Assembly (NCBI GenBank): GCA_963760145.1
Contig: CAVXBW010000019.1
Span: 68,348 to 132,347, forward strand
DNA: 64,000 bases
Reading direction: 5' to 3'
DNA from: an uncultured Deinococcaceae bacterium
GTDB taxonomy: Bacteria > Deinococcota > Deinococci > Deinococcales > Deinococcaceae
Shown: positions 10,760-61,435 of the stretch, piece by piece
Position numbering within the stretch: the first letter of the stretch is position 1
Layout of the letters: the number at the start of each line of letters is the position of its first letter
Program-made: the position numbers and the translations under genes
The notes under the pieces: model-generated
Seen by the model: only the letters and a program-made list of their open reading frames with translations
What the model was told of the DNA's origin: nothing
Database searches by the model: none

Positions 10760-12160
10760 TCAGCGGTTGACGATGTGAATGGCCTGCTTGTGCACCGCTT
10801 CCGCCGCTTCCAGAATGCTCTCGCCGAGCGTCGGGTGGGCGTGGATCGTCAGCGCGATGTCGCTGGCGGTGGCGGCCATCTCCAGGCCCAAGCTGGCCTC
10901 GCCGAGCATGTCCGAGGCGTGCGGCCCCACGATGTGCACGCCCAGCACCAGATCGCTGCCTTCTTCGGTGATCATCTTGACGAAGCCCTCGGTGGATTGC
11001 AGGGTCATGGCGCGGCCCGAAGCGGCAAACGGAAACTGCCCGGTTTTGATCTTGTAGCCCTTGGCCCTGGCTTCTTCCTCGGTCAGGCCCACCCAGGCAA
11101 GTTCGGGCGAGGTGTACACCACGCCGGGAATCGCCACCGGGTCCATCTCGGCGGGCTCGCCCGCAATGACCTCGGCGGCCACCAGGCCTTCTTTCATGGC
11201 CTTGTGCGCCAGCATCGGGTTGCCCGCCACGTCGCCGATGGCGTAGATGTGCGCCACGTTGGTCTGCATCTTGCTGTTCACGGTCATAAAGCCGCGCTCG
11301 GTGGCGATGCCCAGGCCTTCGAGGTTCAGCCCGGCGCTGCGCGGGCGGCGGCCCACCGCGACCAGCACCCGGTCGTAGGTTTCGCTGCGCTTCTCGCCGG
11401 TCTTCACGTCTTCCAGTTCCACGTTCAGCGTGCCGTCGGGCTGCTTCTCGGCTTTGTTGGCCTTGGTCTGGGTCTGCACCTCGATGCCCTGCTTTTCCAT
11501 CGCCTTGCGGAAGGCCGCCACCGCGCCCGCGTCGGCCCCCGGAATCACGTTCGGCAAAAACTCGATGATTTTGACCTTGCTGCCCATGTTGTTGTAGATG
11601 TGGGCGAACTCGAAGCCGATGACGCCGCCGCCGACGCACAGCATCCGCGCCGGAACCGGGTCGGGAATGACCAGCGCCCCGGTGGAGTCCACGATGCTGC
11701 TGGTCCACATCCAGCCCCGGCAGCTTGGCCGGTTCGGAGCCGGTGGCGATGATGAAGTTGGCGGCGGTGTAGGTCTTGTCGCCCACCTTGATGCTGTGGG
11801 CGTCCACGAACATGGCCTCGCCGATCAGGTGCGTGACTTTATTGGCTTTAAACAGCCCGCCCACGCCGCCGGTCAGCTTGGTGACGATGCCGTCTTTCCA
11901 TTTGTTGAGCTTGCCGATGTCGAGTCTGGTGTCGGAGAAGGTCAGACCGAACTCGGCGGCGTGCTTGCTGGCGGCCAGCTCGTCTCCGGCGTGCAGCAGC
12001 GCCTTGGTGGGAATGCAGCCGACGTTGAGGCACACCCCGCCGAGGTATTCCTTCTCCACGCAGGCCACCTTGAGGCCGAGCTGCCCGGCGCGGATGGCGG
12101 CGTGGTAGCCGCCAGGGCCGGCGCCGATTACCAGGACATCAAAATCCATTTGTTGGTCAT
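10760..12160 (-). CDS. lpdA: dihydrolipoamide dehydrogenase; indels near 11700 and the start
   Basis: [28 protein letters not shown] motifs. Confidence 0.96.
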
Positions 12161-12354
12161 GCCCAGTTTAGCGCGGCGGGCGGGGAGAGAGTGACGCATT
12201 TGAGAAGTCAGTGGCGATGGATTGACAAGTCGGTGAAGTGAATGATGGGTCTGTGCGATTTCCGAAGGACGCGGCGGCCAGCAGGACCACAAAAACGAGC
12301 GGGCCGATGCCCTCGGATGTTTCGCCCCTCTGCCCCGCTCGGTGGGAGTGCGGC

Positions 12355-13579
<1,225 letters not shown>

Positions 13580-13929
13580 GGAAAACCTCCAACCGAGGAA
13601 TACATCAGGAATCAAGCAGGTGCTGAAGGAACAGTGCCGGCCATGCTCGCCGCTCACCAGAGCCCTCAGCATGGCGCAGTTCTCAGCGGGCGTTTGTGAC
13701 AGCAGCTCGGCTTCTGGGTGTGGGCATACAGTTCCGGCTCCGCTCATCGCCCGGGCAGCAGGGCAAGCAAAACCCAAGCTGAAACCTGCAGCCGGTAACC
13801 CTTCCCATCTGCGTAGCGATTTGGTTTTTTGCTGTCCGGCAAATGAAAAATTCTTTGACGGCCTTTTTTGTGACCATTTGCCGGAACCAGCCCAACAGCA
13901 TTCTGCGTCACTGGACACACCAAAAAAAG

Positions 13930-13945
13930 TGTGATTTTTTTCGCA
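13930..13945. promoter_or_regulatory. CRP/DdrI-type binding site candidate upstream of the DUF11 operon
   Basis: TGTGA-TTTTTT-TCGCA, one mismatch to TGTGA-N6-TCACA. Confidence 0.5.
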
Positions 13946-14070
13946 CATGTTTCTCAGAACTGTAAGTCATAGGTAAGGACGGTTTACCTAGCCTTTATCC
14001 AGTCGTCAGATCTGACAGAAACGTCATGTTTCACCAGGTTGTCAAGCTGTGGCCCTTTAAGGAGAACTTC

Positions 14071-14568
14071 ATGAAAACGTCTTCCCGCTTCCTTCTGATG
14101 GCCCTGTTGACGGGCACAGCGCTGGCTCAAGGCGATTCGCCGTTGAAGCTCACGCTGTCGCAGGCACTGGTGCAGACCCTGACCGAGAACGGCAAAAGTG
14201 TCGAGAAGCTTTTGCCGGAACCCAGATCCGTACTGCCGGGCGGTGTGCTGGAGCAGGCCGTGAGCGCGACCAACACCCTGGACCGGGCCCTCGGCAACGT
14301 GATCGTGAACCTGCCGGTGCCGGCCGGCACCACCTACCTCAGCGCCGTCGCCGCCAATGGCGAAGTCAAGACCCTCTACAGCGCCGACAAGGGCAAGACC
14401 TTTGCCGCTGCGCCCCTGATGAAAATGGTCAGCGTCACCGAAAACGGCAAAGCCGTTCAGAAAGAAGTGGAGGTCAAACCTGCCGAGTACACCAACGTCC
14501 GCTGGGTCGTCGCTCAGCTTGCGGCCCAGAACACGCTCAAGCTCGGCTTCCGGGTCAAGGTGAACTGA
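14071..14568 (+). CDS. secreted single truncated DUF11-like domain protein (putative chaperone/cap)
   Basis: AAGGAG RBS; signal peptide ending ALA; PGGVLEQ...N...PVPAGTTY...VRW...LKLGFRVKVN*. Confidence 0.85.
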   Translation: MKTSSRFLLMALLTGTALAQGDSPLKLTLSQALVQTLTENGKSVEKLLPEPRSVLPGGVLEQAVSATNTLDRALGNVIVNLPVPAGTTYLSAVAANGEVKTLYSADKGKTFAAAPLMKMVSVTENGKAVQKEVEVKPAEYTNVRWVVAQLAAQNTLKLGFRVKVN

Positions 14569-14642
14569 ATTGAGCTGAGTTTTCCTTGCCCTGCCCTCCA
14601 CATTATCTTCCGCGCCGATTCCGTTTTCTGAAGGAGAACACC

Positions 14643-16890
14643 ATGAACATAAGCAAGAAAATCCTTATCCTGATGGTCGCTCTGGCGGCCGGTACCGCCG
14701 CCGCCGCTTCTGCGGGCACCACCGCCGGCACGAGTATCCAGAACATCGCCACCGTCAACTACATCGACCCCGCCACCGGCACGGCCGCCGCGCCGATCGA
14801 TTCCAACACCGTCACCACCACCGTGTTGCCGGTGGCCGGACTTTGACATCGTCTACACCGACGGCAGTCCGGACGGCAACACCGCCTCGACCCCCGCCAT
14901 GAGCGCCGATAAGACAAGGCGTGTTGCCCGGCGGCGAGGTCAGACGGCCATACACGGTGGTCAACAACGGCAACATCGACAACTACGTGATCGACCTGAA
15001 TCTACGCCGCCGGCATACCACCGCCTGCCGAGCATGGCCCTGCCGCGGCGCCGGACGTGCAGTACTTCCTGGCCAGCGACACCCCACCTTCTCGCGCCGA
15101 TCACCAGCGTCACCGTGCCGGCCAGCGGCAAGGTCAATTTCATTCAGCGCCTCACCGTCCCCAGTAACGCCGTCGCCAAAGCGCGCAGTACTCGGCCAGC
15201 CCCCACGGCAGTGTCCGCCGGCGGCAGCAACAACGGCAGTCCCTACGGGGCGGTGGATGAAGCCACCAACGTAACACCCGCCCACCCCGGCGGCCAACAA
15301 CGACCTTCAATTCACCCGCGCCACCATCTACAGTCCCCCGGTGCTGACCCCGCCGCTGACCGGAACAACACCCCCAATGCCGCCCAGCCCGACGGTGATC
15401 CCGCCGACCACCCGGCACCAATCCCGGCACGCCGAGCAATCCGGTGTCCCCGCCCACCACGCCGGGTGATCCCACCGACCCCAGCGGCCCCGGCTATTCC
15501 GATCCGGCCACGCCCAGCACCGCCATTCAGGTCTCCGGCAACATCCAGATCGCTTATCCGATTGCCAACCAAACCTCCGGTGACCTTCAACAACAACGTC
15601 CGCACGGCCGTCGCACTCCCCGACACCGTCAGCTGTTCCCCACCGACGCCAGCGGCGCACCCATCGGCACCAACAACGGCAACGGCACCTTCAACGTCCC
15701 GGCGATTGGACGCAACCCGGCTTACAGGTGCGCTTCACCAAGCTGACGCGTGCCGCTGCCGACGGCCACCACGCACTGACAGCAAGGTCTATCCGGTTGT
15801 CAGTTCCCGGCGGGCGGCGGACGCCGCGTACCACACCAAGATCGAACCCCAACCCGCAAACCATCGCCGATCCGCGTGGCGAATGTCGGTGACGGTAGGT
15901 GTCAGTCCAGCAACGATTCGGACATCACCGCCAACGGCACGACCACCGACACGGTCATGCCCGCCGCGGCCAGCTTCGGCGACGTCCCCGCCAGCGGCCC
16001 GGCCCCGAACCGCAGCTTGATCGGACCCGAACAACGCCGCGCAGAACGTGGTGCCCGGCGCGGCGGCCGCCAGCGGCGCACCCTCGACGACCACCGCGAC
16101 GGACAGCACGGCGGTGTTCCCGATGCTGGTCAACAACACCGGCAAGTACAACGACACCTATACCCTCAGCGGCACGGCACCGGTCAAGAATACCGAGCGG
16201 CACCACCACCACCGTCAACGTCCGGTATGTGGACGCCTCGGGCGCGGCCCTGCCGAGCGGCGCGGTCGCCAATACCTTCGTCACGCCCTTGGTGGCCGCG
16301 GGCAGCAGCCTGACCGTCTACGCCGTCGTGGATGTCCCCGCCACCGCCAAAGCCACCACCGGCAGCAACCCCGCCAGCAGCAACCCGAATCCGGTCTTGA
16401 CCCAGAACGCCACGGGCAATTACAGCACCATCGCCCTGACCGACCTCAACGACCAATTCAGATCGGCGCCATCGGCAGCATCACCGCCGTCAAAACCCAG
16501 AGTGCCAACGGTGCGCCGTACAGCGGCGGCGCCCAGTCCGCCAAGCCGGGCCAGACGCTGAACTACCGCATCATCGTCACCAACAAGTACAACGGCCCGG
16601 TGGCCGGCGTCCAGTTGAAAGAAAAACCCAGCAACACCGCCTTCACCTTCACCAACTTCGTCTCGGCCACCACGACCGCTTCGAGCGGATTTGTCGGCAA
16701 GCAGGAGGTGTACTACAGCACCGACAACGGCGCGACCTTCACCACCACCGCACCCGCTGCCGGAACCAACCTGAGCGTCGCCGGGTTGATCGTCGCCGTG
16801 GACACCAATGCGACCACCGGCATCGATGCCGGTGACCTGATGCCCGAAAACGCGACCATCACCCTCGACCTCAACACGACCGTCAAGTAA
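14643..16890 (+). CDS. secreted DUF11-family protein, putative major fibre subunit; many indels
   Basis: AAGGAG RBS; signal peptide, then [17 protein letters not shown]...SNTVTTTV; Thr/Asn-rich Ig-like repeats; C-terminal AVKT...[13 protein letters not shown]...[10 protein letters not shown]. Confidence 0.8.
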
Positions 16891-16898
16891 GCCGCCGT

Positions 16899-16930
16899 TC
16901 TGGTGCGTCCCAGTACTGGGACGCACCAGA
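16899..16930. terminator. perfect 32-bp palindromic stem-loop after the putative major subunit gene
   Basis: TCTGGTGCGTCCCAGT|ACTGGGACGCACCAGA. Confidence 0.65.
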
Positions 16931-17100
16931 TTGCTGGAACACCGGACGTCTGGATCATCCCTTTTTGCTGCGTTTCCCCAACACAAGAGCGTTCCCGTTT
17001 CAAGACCCCTTTTGCCCCACCCCATTGTTTGCGTCGTTCCTTTCTGCACGTTCGCCAATCCGGTGATGAGTCTCGAAGCATCCATCCTGAAGGAGATACT

Positions 17101-19822
17101 GTGAATGCTCTTTCCGCATCTTTCCATGCTGTCGTTTCTGAGTTTCTGAGCCTGGCCCAGGCGGCGGCACTGCCGTCCGGAACCACGATCGACAACCAGG
17201 CGGCCGAAGCCCGAGCGTTCGCCGTGAGGCGCCCGTGATACGGTGTCGAACGTAGTGAGACCACGGTGGCGGCCGTCTGCGCCGTCAGCGTCACGCCGGA
17301 CGGCACGTCCAGCAGCCCGGTCAGCAGCGCAGCGTGTTGCCCGGCGAGGCCGCGGTGTTTTCTACCGGATGCTCAACACCGGCAACGTGGCCGCCACCAT
17401 GCCCCTGTCCGGTCCTGGTGTCTGCCGAGTCGGCCTTCACGCCGAAACTCGCGCTGTATCTCGACAGCAACGGCAATGGACAGCTGGAAGACGTGAGCGA
17501 AAAGCCGTCTCGCAGCGTGGCTTTGCCCCCAGACGCCTCAGCGAACTTGCTGCTGCTCGCTCAGAGCGAAGAGCAGCACCTCGGCGACGCGTTCGTGAAT
17601 GTCTCGGCCAGTTGCGCAGGGCAAGCACGCCGACGACGAACAACGTGGCGCTGCTGCGCCTGGGAGCGCCGCCCGCCCTGACACTCACGAAGACGTTCAG
17701 TCCCAGCATCGTCAAACCCGGCGACCAAACCACCGTGACCCTGACCGCTATCAATGCCGGTCAGGGCGCCTCGCGTGAAGTTGCGCTCTCGGATGATCTC
17801 AGTGCGCTCGCTGCCCAGGGCCTGAGCTTGGTGAGCGGTAGCGCAGTGCCAGCGGCGGCACGCTGGAGTACGGCCTCGGCGCGGCCTGGCAGTCCGGCGA
17901 GTCCGGCGCGGTGCAGGGCATCCGGGTCCGGCAGGATCACTCAAGCCCGGCGGCCGCTCAGCTTGACTTTCAGGATGCTGGCCGGTCCCCAGACCGAGAA
18001 CAAGACGTTCGTGAACACGGCGCCGTGGCCAGCACCGGCAAACAGAGCGTGCAGGCGCAGGCGTCGCTGATCTCGCAGTACTCGCCGCAGGTGGCGCTGG
18101 GCCCCATTGGTCATCCGGAGGCGGCCGGAGGGCAGCGACGCCGACGTGCAGCAAAAAACCTTCGCGCTGGTCGGCAAGGAACTCTGCTTTGATCAGACGC
18201 TCAAGAACACCGGCGACGTGCGAGACAGCTATGCCCTGAGGGCGAGTCACAAGGAAAACGCCGCAAGTCCGGTGTTCCAGACGCTGGAAGGTCAGCTGCT
18301 GACCATGCCACTGACGCTGGCCCGCGGCGCCAGCCGGACTTCAAGGTCTGCTTGACGCCGCAGGTCCCCGGGCCGCTGACGTGAGCTGATCGCCAGGGGC
18401 CAGCGCTGCACCCAGAACGCCACCAGGACCGCGTGACGGCGGTGCAGGCGGGCTTACCGGAGCCTCAAAATCGGTTTCGCCCAGCGGCATGGTGCCGGCC
18501 GGCACCATCCTGACCTACACCCTGACGGTCGCAATGTCTACAACGTTGCCCTGCACGATCTGGTCGTCCGCGACGCCCTCGGACAGCGCCCTGGAATTCG
18601 TCAGCGCCTCAGACGGCGGCGTACTGGAAGCGGGCGCGGTCGCGGTGTGGACTTTGCCGACCTGGCGCCCGGCGAGAGCCGCACCCTCACCATCAGGGCC
18701 ACGGTGGGCCGGAGACTGCCGACGGCACCAACCTCACCAACACCTTCAACTACCAGTGGCGAGTTGCCGGAGCCGCTGCCGAGCAACGAAACCTCGAACC
18801 TGATGTGGACGGCCCAGCTGGTGATCGAAAAGAGCGGTCGAACAAAGCCGAACGTGACCTACGGTGACCGGCTGACCTACACCCTGACGCTGCGAAATCT
18901 CTCGGCGCAAGGCCCCGCTGGAGGGCGCCTGGTCACCGACACCCGGCCGCGGGCCTCGACTACGTGCCGGGCAGCGCGGCCCTGGCCGGTCAGCCGCTGG
19001 CCGATCCGCAGCAAATGGCCGGCCACCTGATCTGGTCCATTGGGACCTTGCCGCCCGGCGGCAATCTGGTCATGACCTACCAGATGCGGGTGAATGCCCA
19101 GGCGGGCGGAGAACTGCTCAACACCGTCGTGGTCTCGGGCAGGGCGGTGGCCGGAAATTCACGGCGGCGATCACCAGCAACGAGGCCAGCGCAAAGTCAA
19201 GCTCAAACTGCTGATCTTCGCGCCGCTGAGCGACATCGTCGGACGGTCTACATCGACCCAACCGCAACGGCCGCTCCAGCCGCAGACCGATCAGCCCATG
19301 GAGCGCGCGCGTATCCTGCTGGCCGGCGGCCGTGAAGTCCTGACCGACGCGGCGGGGCGCTACCACTTCAAAGACGTGCCGCAGGGTGTGCAGGCGCTGC
19401 GGCTCGATCCCGGAGCGTGCCTCGGTGGCCCTCTCAGGTGCCGATGGACGGCGGACTGAGCGGGCACCCGGACGGTCAATGTCGCGGGGCTGAGCGGCCG
19501 TGGATTTCCCGCTCTCGCCGCTGGTCGGCGACTATTGACGCGCCTTGCGGGACGTCGGTTGACGCCGGGCCGCTTGAAGCTGGAGAAGACTCTGGCGTTG
19601 ACGGTGAGCGGTACACTGGTCACGCTGCAGTCTGAGCAGTCTGCAGTGCCCTGCCGGACTTCGAGCTTGACGACCCGCTGCCCGCGGCGCGGTCCTGAAA
19701 GAAGGAAGCAATACGCTCGGCACTAGCTTGGCGTCAGGAGACACCACCTTGACATACCTTTCGACTGGTCAGGCGAGCGCCGCGCTGCGGTAACCGAACC
19801 CACCGTGCGCTGGAGCGAGTGA
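17101..19822 (+). CDS. secreted multi-DUF11 protein with SdrD B-like domain (putative base/anchor subunit); many indels
   Basis: [21 protein letters not shown]...VSNVVxTTV N-terminus; LTLTKTF...[21 protein letters not shown] and LVIEKS...[12 protein letters not shown] repeats; [12 protein letters not shown]. Confidence 0.75.
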
Positions 19823-22800
19823 TGAACCGAATGTCATGTTTTTCTCACCGCGCTCTTGCTGCTCGGCAGCTGCCCAGGCCCAGGAACTGGGATTGCCGAG
19901 TCGCGGGCCGCCGTCGATGTTGAAAATCGGCCGGCGTGCTGCCCACCAACGCCCCGGAGATCACGCGGGAGAGCACCATCAATCTGCCGTTCGAAGCGCC
20001 GACGAAGCGCGGGAACTCGTCATCGCGCAGACCTGCCACTTGGCGCGACTACCGGCTCGGAAGCGCCCGGCTTGGCGGCAGGGCCATTGCCGACCCGGTG
20101 CTGGGCAGCAGGGCCGGCTGTACTGGGTGGTGCCTGCCCAACAAACCGGAAAGCTGAGCTACCGGTGACGTACAGCGGCAACTCGGTGATCTGGCGGCCG
20201 AGGCGGCCTTGCCCACCAGGGACGCGCAGGCCGCAGCGAACGTGCTGCACGGCACACTTTGATCCGGCGGATCCCTGGCCGCCGCTCACAACATCGTGAG
20301 CCAGGCCGCCAGCCGAAAACGCGGGCACATCAAATGGCCACTTGACGGCACGGTGTACCGCATTCGTGACCGCATCACGGTGACGGTGGAAGGGCCGCTG
20401 GACCGCCGCTGAGCCCCACCATCAACGGCCAGGGCTGCTCGACACCGCCAAAATCGGCAGCCGCACCGACGGACCCGGCGCGCAACATGCAGCGCCTGGA
20501 ATTTATCGGCACGCCGCTGAAACCTGGACCCAACATCATCCAGCTGGGGAGCGACGATCACCGTGTCGCTGCGCCTCGGTGACCAAGCGGGTCGACGTGA
20601 CGCCGCTGCGAAGTGGTGGCGGACGGCAACAGTCTGATCCGCTGCGAGCTGCGGGCCTACGACGCCTTCGGCATGCTGTCTTCGGTGTCCGAGCGTGACC
20701 GTGAGAAGCAATCTGGAACCCAAAACCCCGACGCTGATCCGTCGAAGGCGGGATACCAGGTTCAGATGAAGACGGCGAAGGCGTACTCGTCGCTGCAACC
20801 GCAATCGTCACCGACGACGCTGAACCGTCGCTGCTGGTGAACGGCAAGAGCAGATCAGCCGCTTTGAGATCATGCCGGCCGGCGCCGGGTCGCGGTTGGC
20901 ATGGTCAGCGCCACCCTGGGCCTGCCGGACTTTGCGGTGCAGGGCCGAGAACTTGAGCTACCAGGCACGCGCTTCGATTGAAACGCCGCTGCCGGCGGCA
21001 AGCTCTACCTGACCGCCGACAAGGACGGCCTGCCGAGTTCGGAGAGCGTGTACAGCCCGGCAGGCCAATTACGGCGACAGCAGCAGCGAGAGCATGCCGC
21101 TGCAAGGCGTCGACCCGGTGGCGTTCACGTATGATCACCCGGCATTCCGGGCCGCCTACAAACAGGGCCGCTTGCCCGGTGACGTGTTGCCCCTCGGCGA
21201 GAACTTCACCGCCCTGCGGGTCGGTAGCAAGTCAAGTGGCCCGAACCTCTCGGGCTACGTCGCGGCGGTGCCGGCAAGCCAAATCAGGCGCAGCTGACTC
21301 CCGAAGGACGCCTGCTTCACCTTCAACAGGGCATGGCGCCGGACAGCGAAAGCCTGACGGTCGTGGTCCTCGAGCGAGTCGGGCCGGCAAGGAACTGTCG
21401 CGGACCCGCTGACCCGGCTGGCGGATTACACCCTCGGACATGACAGCGGCGTGATGACGCTTCAATCAAGCCCGCTCGACCGCTCGACGCCGAGCTCAAC
21501 GATGTCCGGGTGGACGTGAGTTACCGGCTGAACAACCCGCTGGGCCAGCGCGAACTCAGTTACGGCGCGCAGATGTGGCAGCAGCAGCAGCGCACGGCCG
21601 GGCCGGCGTTGGTTCACTGTGACGGACGTGACCACCTACGGCGTGAGGGCAACGTACGCCGACGACGCAACACCCGCGCCAGTGCGTTGGCCGCTTATCC
21701 GAGGGGCTGCAGCTCAGCGGCAACTTCGAGCGCCGTTTCTCGGCCAGCAGCGTGCTCAGCGCCCAGGGGCGCTACCAATCCAAGAATTACGCGGGCCTGT
21801 CGCCGCTGGGCACGGGCCTGAACGTGGCGGCCAATTACAAAACGCGTTGTTCGGTGAGCGTCTGGTGGCCAGTATTGACGGCGAATACCACAACACCCGG
21901 CGGCCACGACCGAAGTTGCAGGGCGGCAGCCTGACCACCCGCGCCGATTACAATTTCAAGCCGTTCAGCGTCGGCGGCGGCCTCAAGTACGCTTTCGGCG
22001 ACACGTACGGTCTGGGCGCCGTCGCCAGCGTGGGCTACCACCGAGCGCCGCTGGATATTGACGTCGTACACACCCAGCCGCTGAGCGGCAACCTCGCCGC
22101 CGTGAGCGACGTGAGCGCCAAAGTCAGGGTCGCCAGCAACGTGACGCTGGGCATCAAAGACACCTACACCTGGGGGAGGCAGTCACTGGCGGCGCTGACC
22201 ACCGACACCAAGCTCGGGAACGTCAATTACGCGGTGAGCTACGAATTGCCCCACGCGGACGGGGCCGGCAACCGGGCCCGCTTCGGGGCCGACACCAGCA
22301 TTCCGCTGTCTAAAACATTCAACCTGGGTCTGCGCGGCGCAGTCGTGCGGGCTTTTGCGCCGGCAGCAATGACTCAGCGCCGGAGCAGACCTGCGTTACC
22401 AGGGCCGCAACGTTGCCGGCAGCTTCGGGAGCGACGTCGACGGAAAGGGGGTCAATTCGGCACGGTGCTGCGCGGCGGTCTGAGCGGCAGCTTGACGCCG
22501 GAGCTGAGCCTGAGCTCAGAGAGCGCTGCCGAGTTGGGCCGCAACCAGGGCCTGCGGGCCGCCCTGGGTACGCTTACCGTGGCGGGGACTTGAGCAGCCT
22601 CGGGTACCTGCGCTACGCGGCCGGCAGCCTTGCTGGCGCCGCTCCGGAAATCACGGCGGGCCTGAATGCGGAGTACCACCGGCCCAGTACGCCCTGCGGG
22701 CCGGACTCGACGCCCGCGAATTGCTGAGTGATTCGCAGAGCCTGACCTTGCAGCCGTCGCTCGGGGTCACCGCGTACATCGGTGAGCGCTTCGGCATTGG

Positions 22801-23011
22801 GCGGGTGGGGCCGGGCCATCTCGCAGCCCGGCAGCGGTACGCGGTGTACGGCTACGGCGTCGAAGGTTCGGTGCGGGCCCTGCCCGGCACCTGGTTGACC
22901 GCCGGGTATAACTTCGCCGGGTTTGACGGCATCGGGAACCAATATACCAAACCCGGATCGTATGTCCGGCTTGATGTGACGCTGGACGAAACGGTAGGGG
23001 GGGAGAAGTGA
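19822..23011 (+). CDS. large secreted outer-membrane beta-barrel protein (putative usher-like pore); many indels
   Basis: TGATG coupling to the upstream gene; signal-peptide-like start; C-terminal half of alternating amphipathic strands ([33 protein letters not shown]) ending [10 protein letters not shown]. Confidence 0.7.
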
Positions 23012-26000
23012 AGTTGAAATCCGATTCTTGGTGGTCGTGCTCTCGGTTACTGGCAGTCTTGGTGGCGCTGCTGGGGTTTGGCGGCTTGGTACGAGCAGAG
23101 AGCTTTAATCTTGAGTTTGTCAACGGTGTGGCAGTCCCTGGCGGTGGTACGTGTACCTTAACCGTCAACAGCAGATGCCGCTTCAATAACGTGGTGGTGG
23201 GGGCCGGTACAGGAAGTAGCAATACTTTCCAGCGTGACATAATTGTAACCCTGACAAAACTTGTCAATGCAACACTTGATCCTGCAGCTGTTTTTGATAA
23301 CCCCACACCAAGTTTATCTACAACGCCACCTTCAGCAGCAACGGCGACTCAACTTTTCGCTCCGACGGTTTTGCCTACACAAACAACACCTAATATCGAC
23401 GGATGGGCAGAGTTTACCTTCGATTTCATAACGCCTGGCGGCGCTGTCCCTGCAGTTGGTGCCGGCACAGCGATACTCCCTGGTTCATTCTGGGTGACCA
23501 GTTATGATACTGACGGCTCTGGAACGTTACGTGAATTTGTAGAGTTTCTGGGTATTCCTGCAACCTCCACGGGCTTGTCCGCTTCCAGTACGCTCAGCAG
23601 TAACACCGCAATTGATGGAGGCGTGCAGTATCAGTCAGGCACAGTAGGGCAAGCTGGTATTACCACCCTAGATACCTATAAGGCCTCCGCACAGTATTCG
23701 AACGTGTCGAGCTTCAAGCTCGTTTATGGTGCCCATACAGGAACTAGTGGCAGTACGGCCGGCGGCCGCTTGACCGCGTTTGATTTCTTCAAGCCTGACG
23801 CTATCTTTTTGCGCCCTGATGTAAACGGTTACAAATCCGTGAAATTCACCACCGATGCAGATAGCAGTGGTTCGCTCACACCGGGCGATACCCTGACCTA
23901 CACGGTGACGTACGTCAACACTGGCAATGTGGCTGTCAGCAATTTTCAGATCGTTGACACCTTGCCTACAGGCGTAACCACAACGGCGGGTGCGCAAACG
24001 GTTCGGGTGAATGGAGCCGTCACGCCTGGTTCGAAGAATACTGCTTATACGGGCAAAGCCGCCAATATCAATCTTCTATCGACTGGTCAAACTTTAGCTA
24101 TTGATGGAACAATAAGCGTTGATATTCCGGTCACTGTTAATTCGATTTCGATAGATAACACTGTTTTAAGCAATCAGACCAATAGTAGTGGAGGTTTTAT
24201 TGACGCTATCAATACAAGTATGACGATGACAAGTGTCAGTTCCGATAATGTGGACACCACTACAGCATTTTCTCCTAATGTTTCAGGTGCCAGTGGCTTT
24301 GGGAGTGTACCGAGCGGCAGCATTGCTCAGACCCAAACAGCAGCGGTGGACCCCACCACAGTGACGGTGCGTCTGCTTCCTTCGCCGGGTATCACCAAAG
24401 CGTTTACTCCCACCAGTATTGCGCTAAACACCATCAGCACCCTGACCTTTACCCTGACCAACAGTAGCACCGGCACTCTGACCAACCTGAACTTCACCGA
24501 CGCCCTCAGCGGCATGAGCGTGAGCAGCGCAACCATCGGCGGCACCTGTGCGGCCACGAGCAGCCCGGCCTTGGCCGTGGACGCCACGGCCCTGAACCTG
24601 ACGGTGCCGAGTCTGGCGGCGAGCGGCAGCTGCACCGTGACGGTTTCGGTCAAAGGAACCGTCATCGGCGTGAATCCCAACACCGCCAGCGGCGTCACCA
24701 GCACTCAGACGCCCACAGCCGGCAGCGCCTCCAACACCGCCAACCTAACGGTGACGCCGCTGGCGCCAGCGATCAGCAAGAGCTTTAATCCTTCAAGCGT
24801 GCTTCAGGGCGGCACCACCCAGCTCACCATCAACGTGACCAACCCCAACGGCGTGGCGGCGACAGCCCTGACCCTAACGGACGATATCGCCGCGACCACT
24901 GGCCTGACCGGGCTAAGTATCAGTAGCGTGGTCAGCGACAACTGTAAATCGGGCGGCACCGTGACGACAACCAGCGGCAAGTACACCCTGACCGGCGGTA
25001 CGTTGCCTGCGGCGGGGTGTGCGGTGGTCCTCAACCTGATGCTGCCGAGTTCGGGCACGACCGGCAGCGTCACCAACACCATTCAGGGCAGTAGCGTCAC
25101 CGGCACCATCGGCGGCCAGAGCCTTCCGACGCCGACCGACGCCTCTGCCGCGCTGAACGTTCAACCTGTCGCCGACCTCGCCGTCACCAAGACCAACGGC
25201 GTGAGCAGCGTCGCTGCCGGCAGCAACACCACCTACACCGTCCGCGTGACCAACAACGGCCCCAGCAGCGTGACCGGCGCGGTGCTGAAAGACCCGCTGG
25301 CAACCGGCCTGACCCAGACGGGAGCGGCCTGCACGTCTGCCAGCGGCAACACCTGCGCGGCTGCTCCGACCACCACTGCGCTGCAAAGTGCGGGCGTGAC
25401 GTTGCCGGCCCTGGCGAGCGGCGGGTTCTACGAGCTGACCGTAACGGCCAGCGTAACGGCGAGCAGCGGCAACGTGACCAACACCGCCACCATCGCGGTG
25501 CCCAGCGGCGTCACCGATCCGGTCAGTACCAACAACACCGCCAGCGACACCGACAGCGTGACGGGCCTGAGCTACTCGATTTCCGGCAGCGTCTTTGTGG
25601 ACACCAACTACGGCGGCGGTGCGGGCCGTCCCTACAACGCGGCGCAGGGCATGACTCTGCGTCCCGGCGTGCGGGTGGAGCTGTACAGCTTGGCCGGCAC
25701 GTTCATCAGCGCAGTGCTGACCGATGCCAGCGGCGCCTACAGCTTTGCCAACCAAAGCGCCGGCTCCTATCAGGTTCGGGCAGTCAACGCTTTCGTAACG
25801 AGCAGCCGCACCGGAGGCTGCACGCCCAGCACGGTTGTGGCGACGCCGCCCACCTGCACACAACTGCCGGTGCAGACTTATATTTACGGCGCGGCCGCGC
25901 AGGTCGGCGGAGCCAATCCTGCCGGGGCGGATCCGGCGCTGAGCAGCACCACCCTGCCCGCCGCGGCGCAGTCGGTTGCCAGCGTGACACTGAGCAGCGC

Positions 26001-28059
26001 CAACGTCACGGGTGTGGACTTCGGCTTCAACTTCAGCACCGTCGTCAATGTGGCGAATGCGGGGCAGGGGAGCCTACGGCAATTTGTCATCAACACCAAC
26101 GCGCTGGACAATTCGGGGCTGGCTCAAAGTGGCAACCGGGCTTCCAAAGTCACGGGCGCCGCTGAAGCGCTGCCCACGGCCCGCGACAGCAGCATTTTCA
26201 TGATTCCTACGGGAGCCTTGACCGGCGGTGTAGCGATGATTTCTTTGAGCAGCGCCTTACCAGCCATCAGCCGCAGCAATGTCAGCATTGACGGCAGCAC
26301 CCAGACCATTAACATCGGCAACACCAATGCCGGCACGCTCGGAACGGGCGGAACAGTCGGTTACCTCGTGACAGCCAGCCTCGATACTGTGCAAAAGCCC
26401 GAAGTCCAGCTGGTGGGCACGTCTGCCCTGGCGGTCGGCTTGGACCTCACGGCCAGCAATGCCCAGGTGCGCGGGTTGTCCATTTACGGCTTCGGCAGCG
26501 GCCCCAACAACGACACGTACGCCAACATCCGCATCGGTGCGGCGGCGAGCGGCACCCTGGTCGAGGCCAACATCATCGGCTCGCCGGCCACCAGCTTCAC
26601 TTGCGGCGCGGCGACCACCACCGCGCTGAGCAATGCCGACAACATCCGTTCTGTAGGCGGCACCACCGGCACTGTTCAGAACAACTTGATCGGCTGCGCT
26701 TCCGGAAAGGGTGTTGGCGTTCAGAGCGTTTCGGTGGGCTGGAGCATTCTGGACAACGAGATTCGCGGCAACGGAATCGGCTACGCCGGGCTGGACGGCA
26801 TTGATATGGAAGATCCCGGCAGCAAATCCCACACCGTGCGCGGCAATCTGATTACCGAGAACGGCGGCGTGGGGGTAGACGGGTATTCCGGCGGCGGCAG
26901 TAATTTGATCGAGCGCAATACCATCACCGGAAACGGCATTGCCCAGAGCTCGTCGTCGGCAGGTGAAACGCCCGGCTTGCGGCTCTACAGCGCCAACAAC
27001 ACGGTCAAGAACAATGTCATCGCTCTGAACTACGGCGCGGGCGTGATGGTCACCGGCGGCGTCAGCGGAAACCTCATTTCGCAGAACAGCATCTATGACA
27101 ACGGCACGGTGACATTGCAAAACGGCAAAGCCGCCAGCGGCCAGATCGGCATTGATCTGCTGGGTTCCAGCGATTCCGTGCTGGTGGGAACCGCGCCGTA
27201 CGTCACTAAAAACGACGTCGGTGACCTCGACAGCGGCGGCAACGACCTGCTCAACTTTCCTGTCTTTAATGCTGCCCTGATCGTAGGCAGCAACTTGCAG
27301 CTGACCGGATATGCCCGGCCCGGCAGCACCATCGAAGTGTTCATCGCGGCGGCAGACGCCAGCGGTTTCGGAGAAGGCAAAACGTACCTCACCACCCTGA
27401 CCGAGGGCAGCGCCGCCGATACCGATACCGGTAGCGGAAGCTACAACGACCCGGTGCTCGGAAGCGACACCACCAACCTGTTCAAGTTCACTGTTCCGCT
27501 GCCCAGCGGCGTGGTCGCCGGAACGAAGTTGACGGCCACCGCCACCTGCCTGACGGGCGCCTGCACCGGCACCACGGTAACGGCCAATTCAACCAGCGAG
27601 TTCAGCTACAACGTTTCTGTGGTGTTGGCGCAGACGCCCAGCGTTACCCTGACCAAACTGGGCCGCAACGTCACCAAGAACACGGCCTTTATCGCCGGCA
27701 GCGGCAGCGTGGGCGTGTTGCCCGGTGAGACCATCGAGTACTGCATCGCCTACCAAAATGCCGGGGGCGTGGCGCCGAACTTCAAGATCACGGATAACGT
27801 TCCGGCCGGGCTGGTAGCGTTGCCAGATGCTTACGCGGTGGGAAAAGGCGTCCGCTTTGCGCCGAGCACCACCATCGCCGCAGGCGCGACGGCTGCGCCC
27901 GCCGGCAGCGACTTGACCAACGCCAGCGACACGGATCAGGGCAGCCTGACCTTGACTGGCGGCGGCTTTGGTAACGGCGTCATGTCTCTGAATCTGGGAG
28001 CGGCTGGTCTGAGCGCCAGTGGCAGCGGCACCGTCTGCTTCCGCACCAGGTTGCCCTAG
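23008..28059 (+). CDS. 1683-aa secreted adhesin: N-terminal lectin-like domain, four DUF11-like repeats, SdrD B-like domain, parallel beta-helix, truncated C-terminal DUF11
   Basis: Intact ORF overlapping the upstream stop (GTGA); ADLAVTKT...TNNGPS...NNTASD; ISGSVFVD...TDASGAYSF; GSLRQFVINTNA and N-I-x-x-N beta-helix repeats. Confidence 0.9.
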   Translation: MKLKSDSWWSCSRLLAVLVALLGFGGLVRAESFNLEFVNGVAVPGGGTCTLTVNSRCRFNNVVVGAGTGSSNTFQRDIIVTLTKLVNATLDPAAVFDNPTPSLSTTPPSAATATQLFAPTVLPTQTTPNIDGWAEFTFDFITPGGAVPAVGAGTAILPGSFWVTSYDTDGSGTLREFVEFLGIPATSTGLSASSTLSSNTAIDGGVQYQSGTVGQAGITTLDTYKASAQYSNVSSFKLVYGAHTGTSGSTAGGRLTAFDFFKPDAIFLRPDVNGYKSVKFTTDADSSGSLTPGDTLTYTVTYVNTGNVAVSNFQIVDTLPTGVTTTAGAQTVRVNGAVTPGSKNTAYTGKAANINLLSTGQTLAIDGTISVDIPVTVNSISIDNTVLSNQTNSSGGFIDAINTSMTMTSVSSDNVDTTTAFSPNVSGASGFGSVPSGSIAQTQTAAVDPTTVTVRLLPSPGITKAFTPTSIALNTISTLTFTLTNSSTGTLTNLNFTDALSGMSVSSATIGGTCAATSSPALAVDATALNLTVPSLAASGSCTVTVSVKGTVIGVNPNTASGVTSTQTPTAGSASNTANLTVTPLAPAISKSFNPSSVLQGGTTQLTINVTNPNGVAATALTLTDDIAATTGLTGLSISSVVSDNCKSGGTVTTTSGKYTLTGGTLPAAGCAVVLNLMLPSSGTTGSVTNTIQGSSVTGTIGGQSLPTPTDASAALNVQPVADLAVTKTNGVSSVAAGSNTTYTVRVTNNGPSSVTGAVLKDPLATGLTQTGAACTSASGNTCAAAPTTTALQSAGVTLPALASGGFYELTVTASVTASSGNVTNTATIAVPSGVTDPVSTNNTASDTDSVTGLSYSISGSVFVDTNYGGGAGRPYNAAQGMTLRPGVRVELYSLAGTFISAVLTDASGAYSFANQSAGSYQVRAVNAFVTSSRTGGCTPSTVVATPPTCTQLPVQTYIYGAAAQVGGANPAGADPALSSTTLPAAAQSVASVTLSSANVTGVDFGFNFSTVVNVANAGQGSLRQFVINTNALDNSGLAQSGNRASKVTGAAEALPTARDSSIFMIPTGALTGGVAMISLSSALPAISRSNVSIDGSTQTINIGNTNAGTLGTGGTVGYLVTASLDTVQKPEVQLVGTSALAVGLDLTASNAQVRGLSIYGFGSGPNNDTYANIRIGAAASGTLVEANIIGSPATSFTCGAATTTALSNADNIRSVGGTTGTVQNNLIGCASGKGVGVQSVSVGWSILDNEIRGNGIGYAGLDGIDMEDPGSKSHTVRGNLITENGGVGVDGYSGGGSNLIERNTITGNGIAQSSSSAGETPGLRLYSANNTVKNNVIALNYGAGVMVTGGVSGNLISQNSIYDNGTVTLQNGKAASGQIGIDLLGSSDSVLVGTAPYVTKNDVGDLDSGGNDLLNFPVFNAALIVGSNLQLTGYARPGSTIEVFIAAADASGFGEGKTYLTTLTEGSAADTDTGSGSYNDPVLGSDTTNLFKFTVPLPSGVVAGTKLTATATCLTGACTGTTVTANSTSEFSYNVSVVLAQTPSVTLTKLGRNVTKNTAFIAGSGSVGVLPGETIEYCIAYQNAGGVAPNFKITDNVPAGLVALPDAYAVGKGVRFAPSTTIAAGATAAPAGSDLTNASDTDQGSLTLTGGGFGNGVMSLNLGAAGLSASGSGTVCFRTRLP

Positions 28060-30779: not shown

Positions 30780-31910
30780 TCAGTGAAACGGGCAGGCGGG
30801 GCCGGTGGCCGCGCCGCTGCTTTCAAGCCAGCCGGGAGTGGAGCGCAAAAAGGCGGGCCGCACCGCCTCGTCCTCGCGGTACTGGCGGTGCCAGATGGCC
30901 GAAGTCGCCGGCGAGAGCGGCGAGATCAGCCAGCTCCAGCGGCCCTGCACGCCCCGCCCGGCCCGCTGCTCCCGCGCCTCGAAGCGAACGAAATGGCGCG
31001 ACACGCTGTGGTGGTCGGCCAGTTTGACGCCCGCCGTATCGAAGCTGTGCAGCGTGGCCACGTTGAGTTCGAGCAGGGCGCGGTCACGCCACAGCGTGCG
31101 CTCACGCCGGGTGTCGAGGCCCAGCGCCCGCGCCACGCCGGGCAACTGGTCGTAGCGCTGAGCATCGGCCAGGTTGCGGGCGGCGATCTCGGTTTGGAGG
31201 TACCAGCCGTTAAACGGAGCGCAGTCAAACGTCAGGCCGCCGACTTCAAGCTGCATGTCGCTGATCACCGGCAGGGCGTGCCACTTGAGGCCGAGCGCCG
31301 CGAAGTCCGGGCAGGTGGGGTGCGTCAGGGTAACTTCCTGCACGTCTTCCGGCGCCAGCGAATAGAGATGCACCTGTCCGCGCCACTCGATGGCCAGCGG
31401 CAGCACGTCGAAGGGACCGGGACATTCGGGCAGCGACCAGCCGTGGGCCAGCACGAAGCGGGTGAGCTCGGCGTTTTGCGGATCGCCCAGGCCGTGCCCG
31501 TGGCCGGCGTAGCGAATGATCTGGTCGTTGATGATCCTGACGCCGGGGCCGAAGACGCTGATGAGCGGTTTGATCTGCCCGCCGTTCCAGGCGGCTTTCA
31601 GGTGGGCACGCACCTCGGCGAACACCTCGTCCGGCGTCTGGATGTGTCGCAGGTCGCGGACCGTCAGCGCCGGCCAGTAGGCCCGGCCCACGCAGCGTGC
31701 CGAGTGGCGCCAGGCCAGTTTGGCTCCGTGGGCGAGTTCGGCGGCGGTGAGCTGGTAGGTGCCGCTGCGGGCGATCTCGGCGGCGACCTGTTCGAGGCGT
31801 ACTGTCAGGCCGCTTCGCCGCGTCTCGCTGTAAAAGGCCCGCAAAAACGGCTGGGCGGCGGCCCACACTTCGGCAGTCTGCGGCCAGGGCCAGGAATGAG
31901 CCTGCGACAT
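30780..31910 (-). CDS. nos: bacterial nitric oxide synthase oxygenase
   Basis: AWRHSARCVGR heme-thiolate motif, PFNGWYLQTEIAARNLAD, DHH, WSWL. Confidence 0.96.
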   Translation of the reverse strand: MSQAHSWPWPQTAEVWAAAQPFLRAFYSETRRSGLTVRLEQVAAEIARSGTYQLTAAELAHGAKLAWRHSARCVGRAYWPALTVRDLRHIQTPDEVFAEVRAHLKAAWNGGQIKPLISVFGPGVRIINDQIIRYAGHGHGLGDPQNAELTRFVLAHGWSLPECPGPFDVLPLAIEWRGQVHLYSLAPEDVQEVTLTHPTCPDFAALGLKWHALPVISDMQLEVGGLTFDCAPFNGWYLQTEIAARNLADAQRYDQLPGVARALGLDTRRERTLWRDRALLELNVATLHSFDTAGVKLADHHSVSRHFVRFEAREQRAGRGVQGRWSWLISPLSPATSAIWHRQYREDEAVRPAFLRSTPGWLESSGAATGPACPFH

Positions 31911-55983: not shown

Positions 55984-56001
55984 CGCCCCGGAGGAGCTGA
56001 G

Positions 56002-56980
56002 ATGAACGCCACCTTACTCAGGCCGCTCGGCCCGCTGCCCACCACGGTGCGCGGCGCCCAGCGCACGCTGGACGAACTGTGGGCCCAGACCGATATCGAG
56101 ACCCGCGCTTACACCGGCAACATCATCGCGCTGACCTCGCCGCAGCATCAGGGCCGAATTCAAGAAGCGCTCGCCGGGCTCTGGAAGGCCGCTACGCCGG
56201 ACGCCAGATCATCGCGGTGATGCAGCCGGCAGCTTCGGGGCGCATGAGCATCGACGCCGAACTGGTGCCGCAGCAGGGCCTGTACATCGAGCGCCTGACC
56301 CTGCTGGCCAACCCCGGCAGCTTCGCGGGGCCATCTTGCCGCTGCTGCGCCCGGCCACCGTCAACCACGTCTGGTGGGCCTCGGACGACCCGCCCGGCGG
56401 CCCGCTGCTGCGCGAGCTGACCGACATCGCCGACCAGGTGATCGCCGACAGCCTGCGCCTGGATATTCCCCCGGCCCGCCACTACGCGCTGGCGGATCTG
56501 GGCTGGTCGCGCTCGGCCGCCTGGCGCGAGGCGCTGGCGCAGGTCTTTGACAGCAAAGACGCCGCCGCCGTGCTGGGCAGGGTCGAGCAGCTCAAGATCT
56601 GGTCGGGCGGCAAGAATGACCGCGCCGCGCGGCTGTATGCCGCCTGGGTCGCCAGCACCCTGGGCTGGAAGGATTTCGGCGCCGTGACTTTGTCAAGGGA
56701 GATTGCCAGCGCCAGCACGGCGATTTGTGCGGCGTGGAGCTCGCGGGCCGGGCGTCAGCTTTGCGCTGAAGGCCAGCGGCAGGAAATGGTGCGAGTCGCC
56801 GCGCAAATTTGGCCGGGTCAACCGCAAGACCTCGATGATGGTGCCGAGCATGACCCTGGCCGAGGGCCTGGGCCGGGTGATGGCCCGCCCTGAGCGCGGC
56901 AGCGTGTTTGAAGCGGCCTGGACACTGGCCCGCGCCAGCCTCGAACAGGCGCCCGCCGGAAAAGGCCGAGCGCTACATGA
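56002..56980 (+). CDS. opcA: G6PDH assembly protein OpcA; several indels
   Basis: Position after zwf; VWW, IADS and [16 protein letters not shown] motifs. Confidence 0.8.
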
Positions 56981-57651
56981 ACGTCCAGGTCTTCGCCACG
57001 CCGCAGGCCACGGCCGACGCCGCCGCCGAGGCGTTCGCTCAGGCGGCCCGGCAAGCGGTGGCCGGGCGCGGAGCTTTTCACGTGGCGCTCTCGGGCGGCA
57101 GCACCCCCAAGCTGATGTACGCCGCGCTGCGCGGGCTGAGCGTGCCGTGGGAGAGCGTTCAGATCTATTTCAGTGACGAGCGCACCGTGGCTCCCGACGA
57201 CGAGCAGAGCAACTATCACACGGCCAAGGTGGGTCTGCTGGACTACGTGCCGGTTGCGCCGCAGCACAAATTCACCGCCTGGAGGGCGAACTCGACCCGG
57301 CGCAGGCTGCCAGCGAGTACGCCGCGCTGCTGCCGCCGCAGCTCGATCTGGTGCTGCTGGGCATGGGCGACGACGGCCACACCGCCTCGCTCTTTCCCGG
57401 CACGGCGGGGTTGCAGCTCGGCGGGCGGGTCATCGCCAACGAGGTGCCGCAGCAGCACACCTGGCGCATGAGCTTTACCTTTGACGAGATCAACGCCGCC
57501 AGAGCACGCTGGCTGCTGGTCACCGGAAGCGCCAAAGCGCCGGTGCTGGCGCAGGTGGCACGCGGCGAGGGCGGCTATCCCGCCGCGCGGGTGCACTCGC
57601 CGGTCTGGTACTGGACACGGCGGCGGCGGCGCAGTTGCCGGACGAAACTGA
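56977..57651 (+). CDS. pgl: 6-phosphogluconolactonase; indels
   Basis: [28 protein letters not shown]. Confidence 0.92.
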
Positions 57652-57725
57652 GCCGCCTCCCCGCACGGCTGCTGACACGTTCGCCTGACATCCTTGACCG
57701 GCCCGCCAAACCGCTAGCTTAGGTC

Positions 57726-58362
57726 ATGGTTTTGTCACGCTTCATGCCCCGGAACGAGAAATTCGGCGAATTGTTCGCCGCGTCGGCCCGCAACGCTCAG
57801 CAAACCGCCGAGGCGCTGATCGTGCTGCTCGGCGCGTCCGGCGACCTGGCCCGCACGCCAGCGGCCTGCGCGACCTCGAGCACGCCGGCGACACGCTGGC
57901 CGCGCAGATCACCCAGATGCTGGCCGATTCGTTCATCGTGCCGTTTGACCGCGAGGACATCATCGGACTCAACGCCGAACTCGACGATTTGACCGACTTC
58001 ATCGAGGAAGCCGGGCGCAAACTGTGGCTCTACCGGGTCGCGCCCACGCCCGCCATGCGCGAACTCGCCGAGGTGGTCTCCAAGCAGTGCGGAGTGCTCG
58101 CGCGCGGAATGCCGCTGATCGAAGATAAAAAGCGAAGTTGCGGAGCTCGAGCGCTCTGGCCCGCGAAGTCCGCGCCCTGGAAGACGAGGGTGACCGCATC
58201 AGCGACGCGGCGCAGGCCAGCTTGTACGACGGCGTGAACGAGGTCAGGCAGATGGTGCAGGCGATGCGAACCGGCGAGATCCTCTCGCTCCTGGAAGACG
58301 CCTCCGATCAGGCGCAGCGGGTGGCCAAGACCGTCGAAAATATTCTGCTGAAAAACGCCTGA
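57726..58362 (+). CDS. DUF47/PhoU-like phosphate transport regulator; indels
   Basis: LEHAGD, FIVPFDREDI...LDD, LEDEGD; upstream of pit. Confidence 0.88.
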
Positions 58363-58366
58363 ACTG

Positions 58367-59361
<995 letters not shown>

Positions 59362-59649
59362 AAGCCGAGCGTTACGGCGTCTTTCATCTGGACATTGAGA
59401 AATTTTACTGGGAGTAGAACTGTAATATGTGATTTAAAAAGCGTCGTAGAGAGCGCAGCTTTCTCGTTCGTTGAGTGCAAATGGTCAGTCAAGTTGGTGG
59501 AGAGTCTTCATTATGAGGGGCGAGTCGCATTGAACTCGGCCCCCGGCCTTTATACTGAGGGCCGATAGGATGTTGGATCCCCGGCGCAGCCTCCTGACGT
59601 TCCTGGAGCGATCGACGGCAAACACTGCTGCCCGCGTGAAAAGGGAGGG

Positions 59650-61015: not shown

Positions 61016-61022
61016 CCCAGCC

Positions 61023-61378: not shown

Positions 61379-61435
61379 GTTCTGAGTTTACGAGCGTCCG
61401 TTACAAGCGGTTCGGGGCCGTCTTTGTGCAGAGCG

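Follow-up and report, generated by a model that had tools for sequence, protein, structure and literature searches.

How could a bacterium with two membranes build a surface fibre from subunits whose genes are accompanied by no sortase, usher or known pilus chaperone? This question is raised by five genes within a 64,000-nucleotide stretch of DNA (hereafter the window; contig CAVXBW010000019.1 of assembly GCA_963760145.1, positions 68,348 to 132,347) from an uncultured member of the Deinococcaceae whose genome assembly is 80.6% complete (2.9 Mb in 33 contigs) and whose nearest named relatives are Deinococcus. An original prediction, made from the letters of the window, had proposed that these genes form an operon encoding a fibre in which the N-terminal hairpin of one subunit completes the immunoglobulin-like (Ig-like) fold of the next, is then locked in place by an isopeptide bond, and is exported through an outer-membrane pore encoded by the same operon. 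Our analysis indicates that the operon probably encodes a donor-hairpin fibre assembled at its own barrel, which is likely isopeptide-locked and likely represents an undescribed type of pilus.

The five genes are co-oriented on the forward strand, surrounded by housekeeping genes, and occupy the positions originally assigned to them: gene 1 at 14071-14568, gene 2 at 14643-16890, gene 3 at approximately 17101-19822, gene 4 at 19822-23011 and gene 5 at 23008-28059. The proposed translational coupling of genes 3, 4 and 5 is visible in the overlaps TGATG (genes 3 and 4) and GTGA (genes 4 and 5), with the spacing between genes 3 and 4 being -4 to +7 nucleotides in 45 of 51 relative loci. Signal peptides had been claimed for all five products; these were assigned by eye only, and that of gene 4 is frameshifted. 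Genes 1 and 5 are intact, and genes 2, 3 and 4 are present in this assembly as fragments only. Family-level tests were therefore run on intact relatives. Alignment with the intact operon of D. alpinitundrae (locus L107) spans genes 2 to 4 almost end to end.

A CLIPPER/DUF11 domain divided between socket and plug

Genes 3 and 5 score above the cut-off of the PF01345/TIGR01451 profile, while gene 1 and the Deinococcus gene 2 (the likely shaft) fall below it, yet are profile-linked to the CLIPPER/DUF11 family. A reference profile of 126 positions was constructed from 316 complete repeats of genes 3 and 5. Its Lys6, Asp40 and Asn103 match Lys715, Asp748 and Asn806 of the solved CLIPPER domain (PMC12617251), and all three residues occur in one domain in 154 of 156 internal repeats of gene 3 and 92 of 96 of gene 5. 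The terminal domains of genes 1, 2 and 5, which end in FRVKVN*, LNTTVK* and FRTRLP* as had been claimed, align to about profile position 90-95 and then end. Position 90 is covered in 62/62, 60/65 and 33/42 of these domains, respectively, and the Asn position in 0/62, 7/65 and 7/42. Profile coverage thus places the same split point, just before the Asn-bearing hairpin, across relatives, which agrees with the claim that genes 1, 2 and 5 lack this hairpin. Lys, Asp and Asn were not found together within one terminal domain of genes 1, 2 and 5, the Asn being located on the N-termini of genes 2 and 3.

The missing hairpin was sought with a hairpin-only profile (I-x-N-x-A ... x-V) that was scanned over the first 120 residues at a threshold of at least 12 bits. 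As originally proposed, the hairpin is found at the mature N-terminus of genes 2 (64/65) and 3 (53/62), with positives in 0/62 copies of gene 1, 0/51 of gene 4 and 3/42 of gene 5. Shuffled controls were positive in 31/65 cases for gene 2 and 4/62 for gene 3, so the gene 2 score is inflated by a Thr/Ala-rich composition; its median is 27.9 bits versus 11.3 bits when shuffled. The motif first given for the hairpin, N-x-A-T ... N-x-A/V, survives in part, since its first Asn holds and its second is not general. The first (donor) Asn is invariant in 58/58 aligned shaft plugs, an alignment from which 8 of 65 shafts missed by the pattern were left out.

Sockets that lack their own Asn have kept the residues that would react with it. 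For example, Lys is present in 66/66 gene 2 sockets (55 in column, 11 by eye) and Asp or Glu in 65/65, with gene 5 sockets exhibiting Lys in 43/43 and Asp in 42/42. An independent family of short shafts (n=120) has Asn in 118/120, Lys in 120/120 and Asp in 120/120 members, all of which stop at the same strand. The reactive residues are therefore retained on separate halves in relatives, as predicted. As Lys and the acid persist in sockets devoid of Asn, the Asn is most simply explained as being supplied by another chain, and the existence of plug-only and socket-only proteins means that a partner in trans is needed. Additionally, we analyzed couplings in 2,339 complete repeats of unrelated giant repeat adhesins that were matched by a gene 1 profile search. 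The top three places are taken by Asp-Asn, Lys-Asp and Lys-Asn, and the hairpin positions I-x-N-x-A-x-V are coupled to core residues of strands A-C, which indicates that the hairpin is part of the core and that the three reactive residues are retained or lost together. At the level of sequence, the domain is thus demonstrably divided into a C-terminal socket bearing Lys and Asp/Glu and an N-terminal two-strand plug bearing Asn.

In the window, plug profile and alignment place the gene 2 donor hairpin (G-x-x-I-x-N-x-A ... S-N-x-V) at 14712-14840, with the Asn codon at 14742. The gene 2 socket occupies 16465-16890, with the Lys codon at 16492 and the putative acidic catalyst at 16621; the latter is Glu here and Asp in most relatives. 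The gene 5 socket (VTLTKLGRN ... FKITDNVP ... up to the C-terminus) occupies 27634-28059 and keeps Lys and Asp with no Asn hairpin.

Shaft, tip and a conserved RNA hairpin

Gene 2 (~750 residues) likely encodes the shaft. The L107 shaft is modeled as an ordered N-terminal hairpin followed by three Ig-like domains and the terminal socket domain, with a predicted local distance difference test score (pLDDT) of 88 and a predicted template modeling score (pTM) of 0.71. The four-domain architecture is thus a prediction of the model. A fold search with it returned generic Ig matches only (best Z 10.8) in which the terminal domain and hairpin were barely covered; the CLIPPER structure 9IFR was unlisted in this search, which excludes nothing. 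By sequence and fold, the shaft thus has no close relative among solved structures. Gene 5 (1683 residues) is an adhesin with complete DUF11/DUF7933 repeats, SdrD_B and beta-helix regions and the C-terminal socket, and is likely the tip. The role of the fibre is likely adhesion, aggregation or biofilm formation, as set by this highly variable protein.

Directly 3' of gene 2 is an RNA stem-loop (16892-16937, forward strand) with a 14-bp core stem at 16899-16930, a z score of -4.7 and a stability matched by 0/200 shuffles. When a stem-loop in relatives was called as a hairpin exceeding mononucleotide shuffles in stability by 6 kcal/mol or more, it was present after gene 2 in 64/65 loci, as compared with 1/62 for gene 1, 14/62 for gene 3, 14/51 for gene 4 and 29/42 for gene 5, though kin among these loci are not independent. 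It also follows gene 2 in T. thermophilus and D. radiodurans. The stem-loop likely steps down expression of genes 3-5, and its conservation suggests that gene 2 is the major subunit, with abundant transcripts of genes 1 and 2 and scarce tip, base and pore. In four loci (L023, L040, L041 and L107) the shaft gene occurs as two diverged copies in tandem, with a separate stem-loop behind each where this was checked, so mixed fibres may be possible.

Base and outer-membrane barrel

Gene 3 (~920 residues) is likely the base or terminator of the fibre. Its donor hairpin is N-terminal, with the Asn codon at 17194; it also has three complete CLIPPER repeats and an SdrD_B-like domain, and is always the gene immediately before the barrel. 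The plug Asn was recognized by pattern in 57/62 bases and by eye in the other five, and covalent termination would be expected from this retention. The last gene 3 domain is conserved and ends in an invariant acidic [DE]PxxxW (62/62).

Gene 4 (~1060 residues) would encode Ig-like domains followed by an outer-membrane barrel with an inserted small beta domain, as judged from a model of the L107 homologue (68% identical; pLDDT 85). In this model Ig-like domains extend to residue 331 and long, mostly amphipathic strands run from 336 to 1042, with the small inserted domain at 466-548. Of 39 listed strands, 33 have an alternating pattern. The predicted barrel has 31 consecutive long strands plus ~7, or approximately 36-38 in total as counted from the secondary structure of the model and not from coordinates. 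Porin alignments span residues 334-1041, which indicates that the first and last strands are adjacent. The homologue thus models as a closed beta-barrel, consistent with the assignment of gene 4 to the outer membrane. If so, this would be a very large barrel of a new type, possibly among the largest outer-membrane barrels known. In a fold search porins, LptD, ushers and SprA were tied as generic barrels, and the intact gene 4 homologue matched no Pfam or NCBIfam family.

We also observed that the last gene 3 domain (window ~19450-19822) keeps Lys and Asp ahead of its acidic end, and that the first DUF11-like domain of gene 4 (~19880-20200) seemingly begins at strand B. These two domains possibly constitute a second split link that joins base to barrel.

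Gene 1 resembles a socket that cannot react

Gene 1 (165 residues) encodes a secreted single CLIPPER-like socket in which the last hairpin is missing, as are the reactive Lys and Asp. It aligns with the sockets of genes 2 and 5 at HH probabilities of 98.6 and 97.0%, but 62/62 copies have Leu, Ile, Val or Gly in place of the Asp, and there is no conserved Lys column in strand A, where the exact register is uncertain. The three Myxococcota copies all keep the Asp, and two are without Lys in strand A. The idea that gene 1 is a chaperone or cap gains strength from the loss of both Lys and Asp, as judged from sequence. It is likely a non-locking chaperone, in that its socket would be able to bind a plug but unable to lock it and could form a reversible plug cap. 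A rival role would be for the long inserted hairpin of gene 1 to fill sockets in the manner of PapD. Gene 1, with its single 145-residue CLIPPER-like domain, does not match the PapD family.

A second, stand-alone copy of gene 1 lies elsewhere in the same genome (C4:7227-7859), between carA-like and panB-like genes. Deinococcus genomes often contain such orphans, which may serve operons without an adjacent gene 1.

Distribution and gene order

Gene 1 has a match in 71 of 72 other genomes of the genus, and the barrel gene is present in 70 of these 72. We fetched 97 loci with a gene 1 match, of which 5 were set aside as duplicates or for hand reading. Among the 92 counted loci, the base gene is in the chain in 62, the barrel in 51 and all five genes, by pattern, in 42. 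The remaining loci are accounted for by gene 1 copies that stand alone, truncation at contig ends or at the 20 kb limit, frameshifts, or genes missed by the filter. All five genes are present on pTT27 of T. thermophilus HB8 (TTH_RS10905-10925), where they are annotated merely as hypothetical or DUF11. Outside of the Deinococcota, full-length gene 1 was found in 3 of 201 genomes of the phylum to which a Myxococcales metagenome-assembled genome belongs. In these three Myxococcota gene 1 is followed by a short shaft, a base protein with an OmpA domain and then a tip, with the base-OmpA protein fused to the barrel in both complete cases. Synteny is thus found across Deinococcota and in Myxococcota. 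There were no plasmid matches for the Myxococcales shaft, and a metagenome scan returned 4 short contigs only. Look-alikes of gene 1 and of the barrel that a language model picked out in clusters from Pseudomonadota, Acidobacteriota and Armatimonadota are leads only.

To avoid sampling by gene 1 only, 20 further loci were chosen by their barrel. The shaft is intact in 17 of these, broken in 1, absent in 1 and off the contig in 1, and most of the genomes involved hold gene 1 elsewhere. This indicates that shaft, base and barrel constitute the core, with gene 1 and the tip able to act from other loci. The claim that the five genes are conserved together therefore stands for shaft, base and barrel but is overstated as regards gene 1 and the tip, both of which commonly lie at other loci. 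One locus (L118:583-12830) encodes a 2,487-residue fusion of an adhesin N-terminus with the C-terminal part of a base directly before the barrel, as would be expected if tip and base are the two ends of one chain; neither shaft nor plug was detected there.

Among D. radiodurans proteins, DR_0685 and DR_B0037 are presumably members of the system, with DR_B0037 representing the shaft, and turn up in the literature in proteomic tables only. For example, DR_B0037 is released with envelope proteins from a D. radiodurans tamB mutant (PMC5382914, Table 1). DR_1461 was rejected as a counterpart, as it is TamB, and no link was found to the radial-dimeric envelope complex of this species, which its paper tentatively assigned to HPI. 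The base and barrel genes of D. radiodurans R1 MP1 (L133) are split in this old record. Two loci encoding ~5,000-residue Myxococcota DUF11 proteins had no barrel or gene 1 match.

Proposed assembly and alternative explanations

We propose that the proteins would join head to tail, with the plug of one filling the socket of another. The tip, which has a socket only, would go first. Shafts, which have both plug and socket and would be made in excess, would then be added on the periplasmic side, where the plug of each newcomer would enter the socket of its predecessor and be locked by a self-catalyzed Lys-Asn bond. The base, which has a plug only and is tied to the barrel, would fill the last socket, end growth and anchor the fibre covalently, in which case each pore would be used for a single fibre. 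Until the pore is reached, plugs would be reversibly capped in the periplasm by gene 1, and the fibre would pass through the predicted giant gene 4 barrel and remain attached there. The split, residue pattern, gene order, fusions and RNA hairpin are established from sequence, and all sequence-level predictions (split, residues, barrel model and synteny) have held. A broader proposal, which we advance tentatively, is that the operon represents a new and widespread class of diderm pilus without sortase or PapC/PapD, featuring a dead-socket reverse chaperone and a single-use pore tethered via the base.

Several considerations weigh against the donor-hairpin fibre. No fibre, oligomer or cross-link has been observed, and the operon shows no evident energy source or gating step. 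A 70 kDa four-domain major subunit would be unusual, and the single-chain L107 shaft model orders the N-terminal hairpin (pLDDT 82-93), which may reflect folding back in cis. An underpowered test (Neff 67) for covariation between plug and socket in 117 short shafts was null, with 8 of the top 20 covarying pairs in the socket versus 7.9 expected. Of the 20 barrel-picked loci, 1 has an adjacent gene 1 and 12 a tagged tip with a socket, and in D. radiodurans R1 MP1 (L133:5975-14184) shaft, base and barrel occur without an adjacent gene 1 or tip. Finally, genes 2-4 are broken in this genome, by what we infer to be assembly error.

One alternative is that joining does occur in trans, but among few subunits (a tip, zero to two spacers and a base), such that the barrel secretes and anchors one covalent adhesin on a modular stalk. 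The shaftless tip-base fusion in L118 and the large, multi-domain nature of the shafts would fit such an arrangement, as would the expectation that a reactive base plug stops growth early. However, the strong stem-loop conserved after gene 2 suggests excess shaft, and no other gene accompanies base and barrel as constantly as the shaft, which is intact in 17 of the 20 barrel-picked loci. We therefore regard the short stalk as unlikely.

It could also be argued that the operon is a decaying pseudogene cluster in this strain, as there are ~12-14 frameshifts per kb in genes 3-4 and none in genes 1 and 5. Frameshift-aware alignment against D. alpinitundrae gives ~13 frameshifts in gene 2, ~37 in gene 3 and ~38 in gene 4, with other references giving 11-16, 32-37 and 39, respectively. 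However, there are no in-frame stops in gene 3 or 4 across 75 indels, and their identities to D. alpinitundrae (66% and 68%) are as high as that of intact gene 5 (68%), which points to consensus error of a long-read assembly. A similar patch of codon-phase noise also occurs at 56-64 kb. Decay thus has only a small probability, and would concern this strain and not the system.

A third possibility is that the same fibre forms by non-covalent insertion of the hairpin only, with Lys, Asp and Asn being kept for packing or a slow reaction. Some DUF11 domains are without the bond (PMC12617251, section 2.3), oligomers of the BsaA variant N35A resist sodium dodecyl sulfate (SDS) without it (PMC11580942), and the shaft in the window has Glu in place of the more common Asp. 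Yet the three residues co-vary together in complete repeats, are near-invariant across the split halves and are cleanly lost in gene 1 only, which makes a purely non-covalent fibre improbable. Least probable is that gene 2 is a circularly permuted monomer completing itself in cis, with only genes 3 and 5 pairing, or that the proteins and a large porin make up a scaffold of the envelope or S-layer. The single-chain model does order the hairpin (pTM 0.71), and the release of DR_B0037, the presumed D. radiodurans shaft, alongside envelope proteins would also fit. However, self-complementation is also predicted for a known polymerizing subunit (Saci_0406; PMC9715654), and a self-closed gene 2 would need neither a plug and socket matching base and tip nor tandem shaft paralogues.

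If the donor-hairpin fibre is correct, it would represent a route to pili in two-membrane bacteria that combines chaperone-usher-like order with Gram-positive-type covalent strength and uses no linking enzyme. It would also provide a function for the unnamed barrel present in 70 of 72 other Deinococcus genomes searched, and a source of naturally split isopeptide domains, from thermophiles and radiation-resistant bacteria, as paired tools for protein ligation. The proposal is directly testable in Thermus thermophilus HB8 (TTH_RS10905-10925) and D. radiodurans.

Comparison with known systems

The operon is undescribed in the open-access literature that was searched, a scope that leaves subscription journals and supplements outside (Table S2 of PMC12617251 may list its proteins). 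Sequence searches of PDB with profiles of the barrel, the shaft and gene 1, and with gene 5, gave nothing at E<0.01; matches to beta-arrestin (E 0.01-0.9) were taken as chance.

Ushers of chaperone-usher pili are 24-stranded barrels, and growth of these pili is ended by terminators such as FimI and PapH. Type 1 (FimH-FimG-FimF-FimA(n)-FimI, FimC and FimD) and P pili, as described in PMC9715654, resemble the operon as proposed here in having an acceptor-only tip, a shaft with an N-terminal donor and incomplete Ig fold, and a terminator, periplasmic helper and outer-membrane barrel in one operon. In contrast, the operon has a two-strand donor from a CnaA-like CLIPPER fold, a predicted covalent lock, a multi-domain shaft, a base tied or fused to the barrel, and a helper that is a dead copy of the socket and not PapD. 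Gene 1 is proposed to cap plugs, the reverse of PapD and FimC, which fill grooves. The gene 4 barrel, with its ~36-38 predicted strands, does not match PF00577, and no PF00577 usher was found on the intact gene 4 homologue or in this genome at its stated completeness. FimD and PapC match the gene 4 model at Z 10-11 and a root-mean-square deviation (rmsd) of 12-16, level with porins. Elsewhere in the genome, a PapD_N-like secreted protein (C9:167099-168754) is followed by possible usher-like gene fragments at a contig end, perhaps representing an unlinked archaic chaperone-usher system.

The operon repeats belong to the same family as CLIPPER/DUF11 (PF01345; PDB 9IFR) and share its Lys/Asp/Asn triad, with the intramolecular bond of that domain being a precedent for the proposed lock (PMC12617251). 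In the main text of that paper CLIPPER is a stalk repeat within single polypeptides, and the word "donor" is absent, whereas the operon splits the domain between chains. GhlA of Litorilinea aerophila likewise forms a surface filament of DUF11 domains, but as one 6,596-residue chain and probable trimer, and neither "donor" nor "isopeptide" occurs in the available text (10.1101/2025.08.19.671072). BsaA of Clostridium perfringens (TasA family) undergoes donor-strand exchange followed by a self-catalyzed intermolecular Asn-Lys bond with an acidic catalyst, as supported by mutants (PMC11580942). Unlike the operon, BsaA as presented there is a Gram-positive, SipW-dependent matrix homopolymer of TasA fold with a single donor strand and without barrel, tip/base hierarchy or chaperone. 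No TasA/camelysin or SipW Pfam match was found on shaft homologues or neighbours. The archaeal thread subunit Saci_0406 also combines a donor-strand filament, proposed intermolecular isopeptide bonds and a cap subunit, but its bond links Asn to the N-terminal Asp between subunits n and n+2, and its description includes no usher, chaperone or outer membrane (PMC9715654).

The type IX secretion protein SprA is a very large monomeric barrel, as predicted for gene 4, and the gene 4 model matches 8gl6_A over 353 residues (Z 11.6, rmsd 9.7). However, this match is tied with ordinary porins (Z 10-12) at 9% identity; gene 4 has no sequence match to SprA, whose barrel has 36 strands, and no other type IX secretion gene is present in the operon. 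No sortase (PF04203) was found in the genome or window, and the subunits end on a beta-strand in place of an LPxTG-type sorting signal. Type V pili are built from lipoprotein precursors with a C-terminal donor strand, whereas genes 1-3 have no Cys after the signal peptide (by eye) and the donor is N-terminal.

Other features of the window and genome

The statement that the window holds no other assembly genes was borne out for the 46 of 51 listed other open reading frames that were scanned, 0/46 of which matched a sortase, usher, PapD or pilin family. Positions 1-24000 and 56000-64000 of the window exhibit high indel noise (codon-phase switches), with dnaK, ftsH, lpdA and others also broken, so other findings inside these patches may be artefacts. 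A gene with a vWA domain (12128-13948), divergent from the operon, adjoins it in L001 and L002 and not in most relatives. A frameshifted lipoprotein with a DUF11-like match (C2:136375-139375) is present elsewhere in the genome, unlinked to the operon. Finally, a gene for a bacterial nitric oxide synthase oxygenase (PF02898) is located at 30780-31910 of the window.

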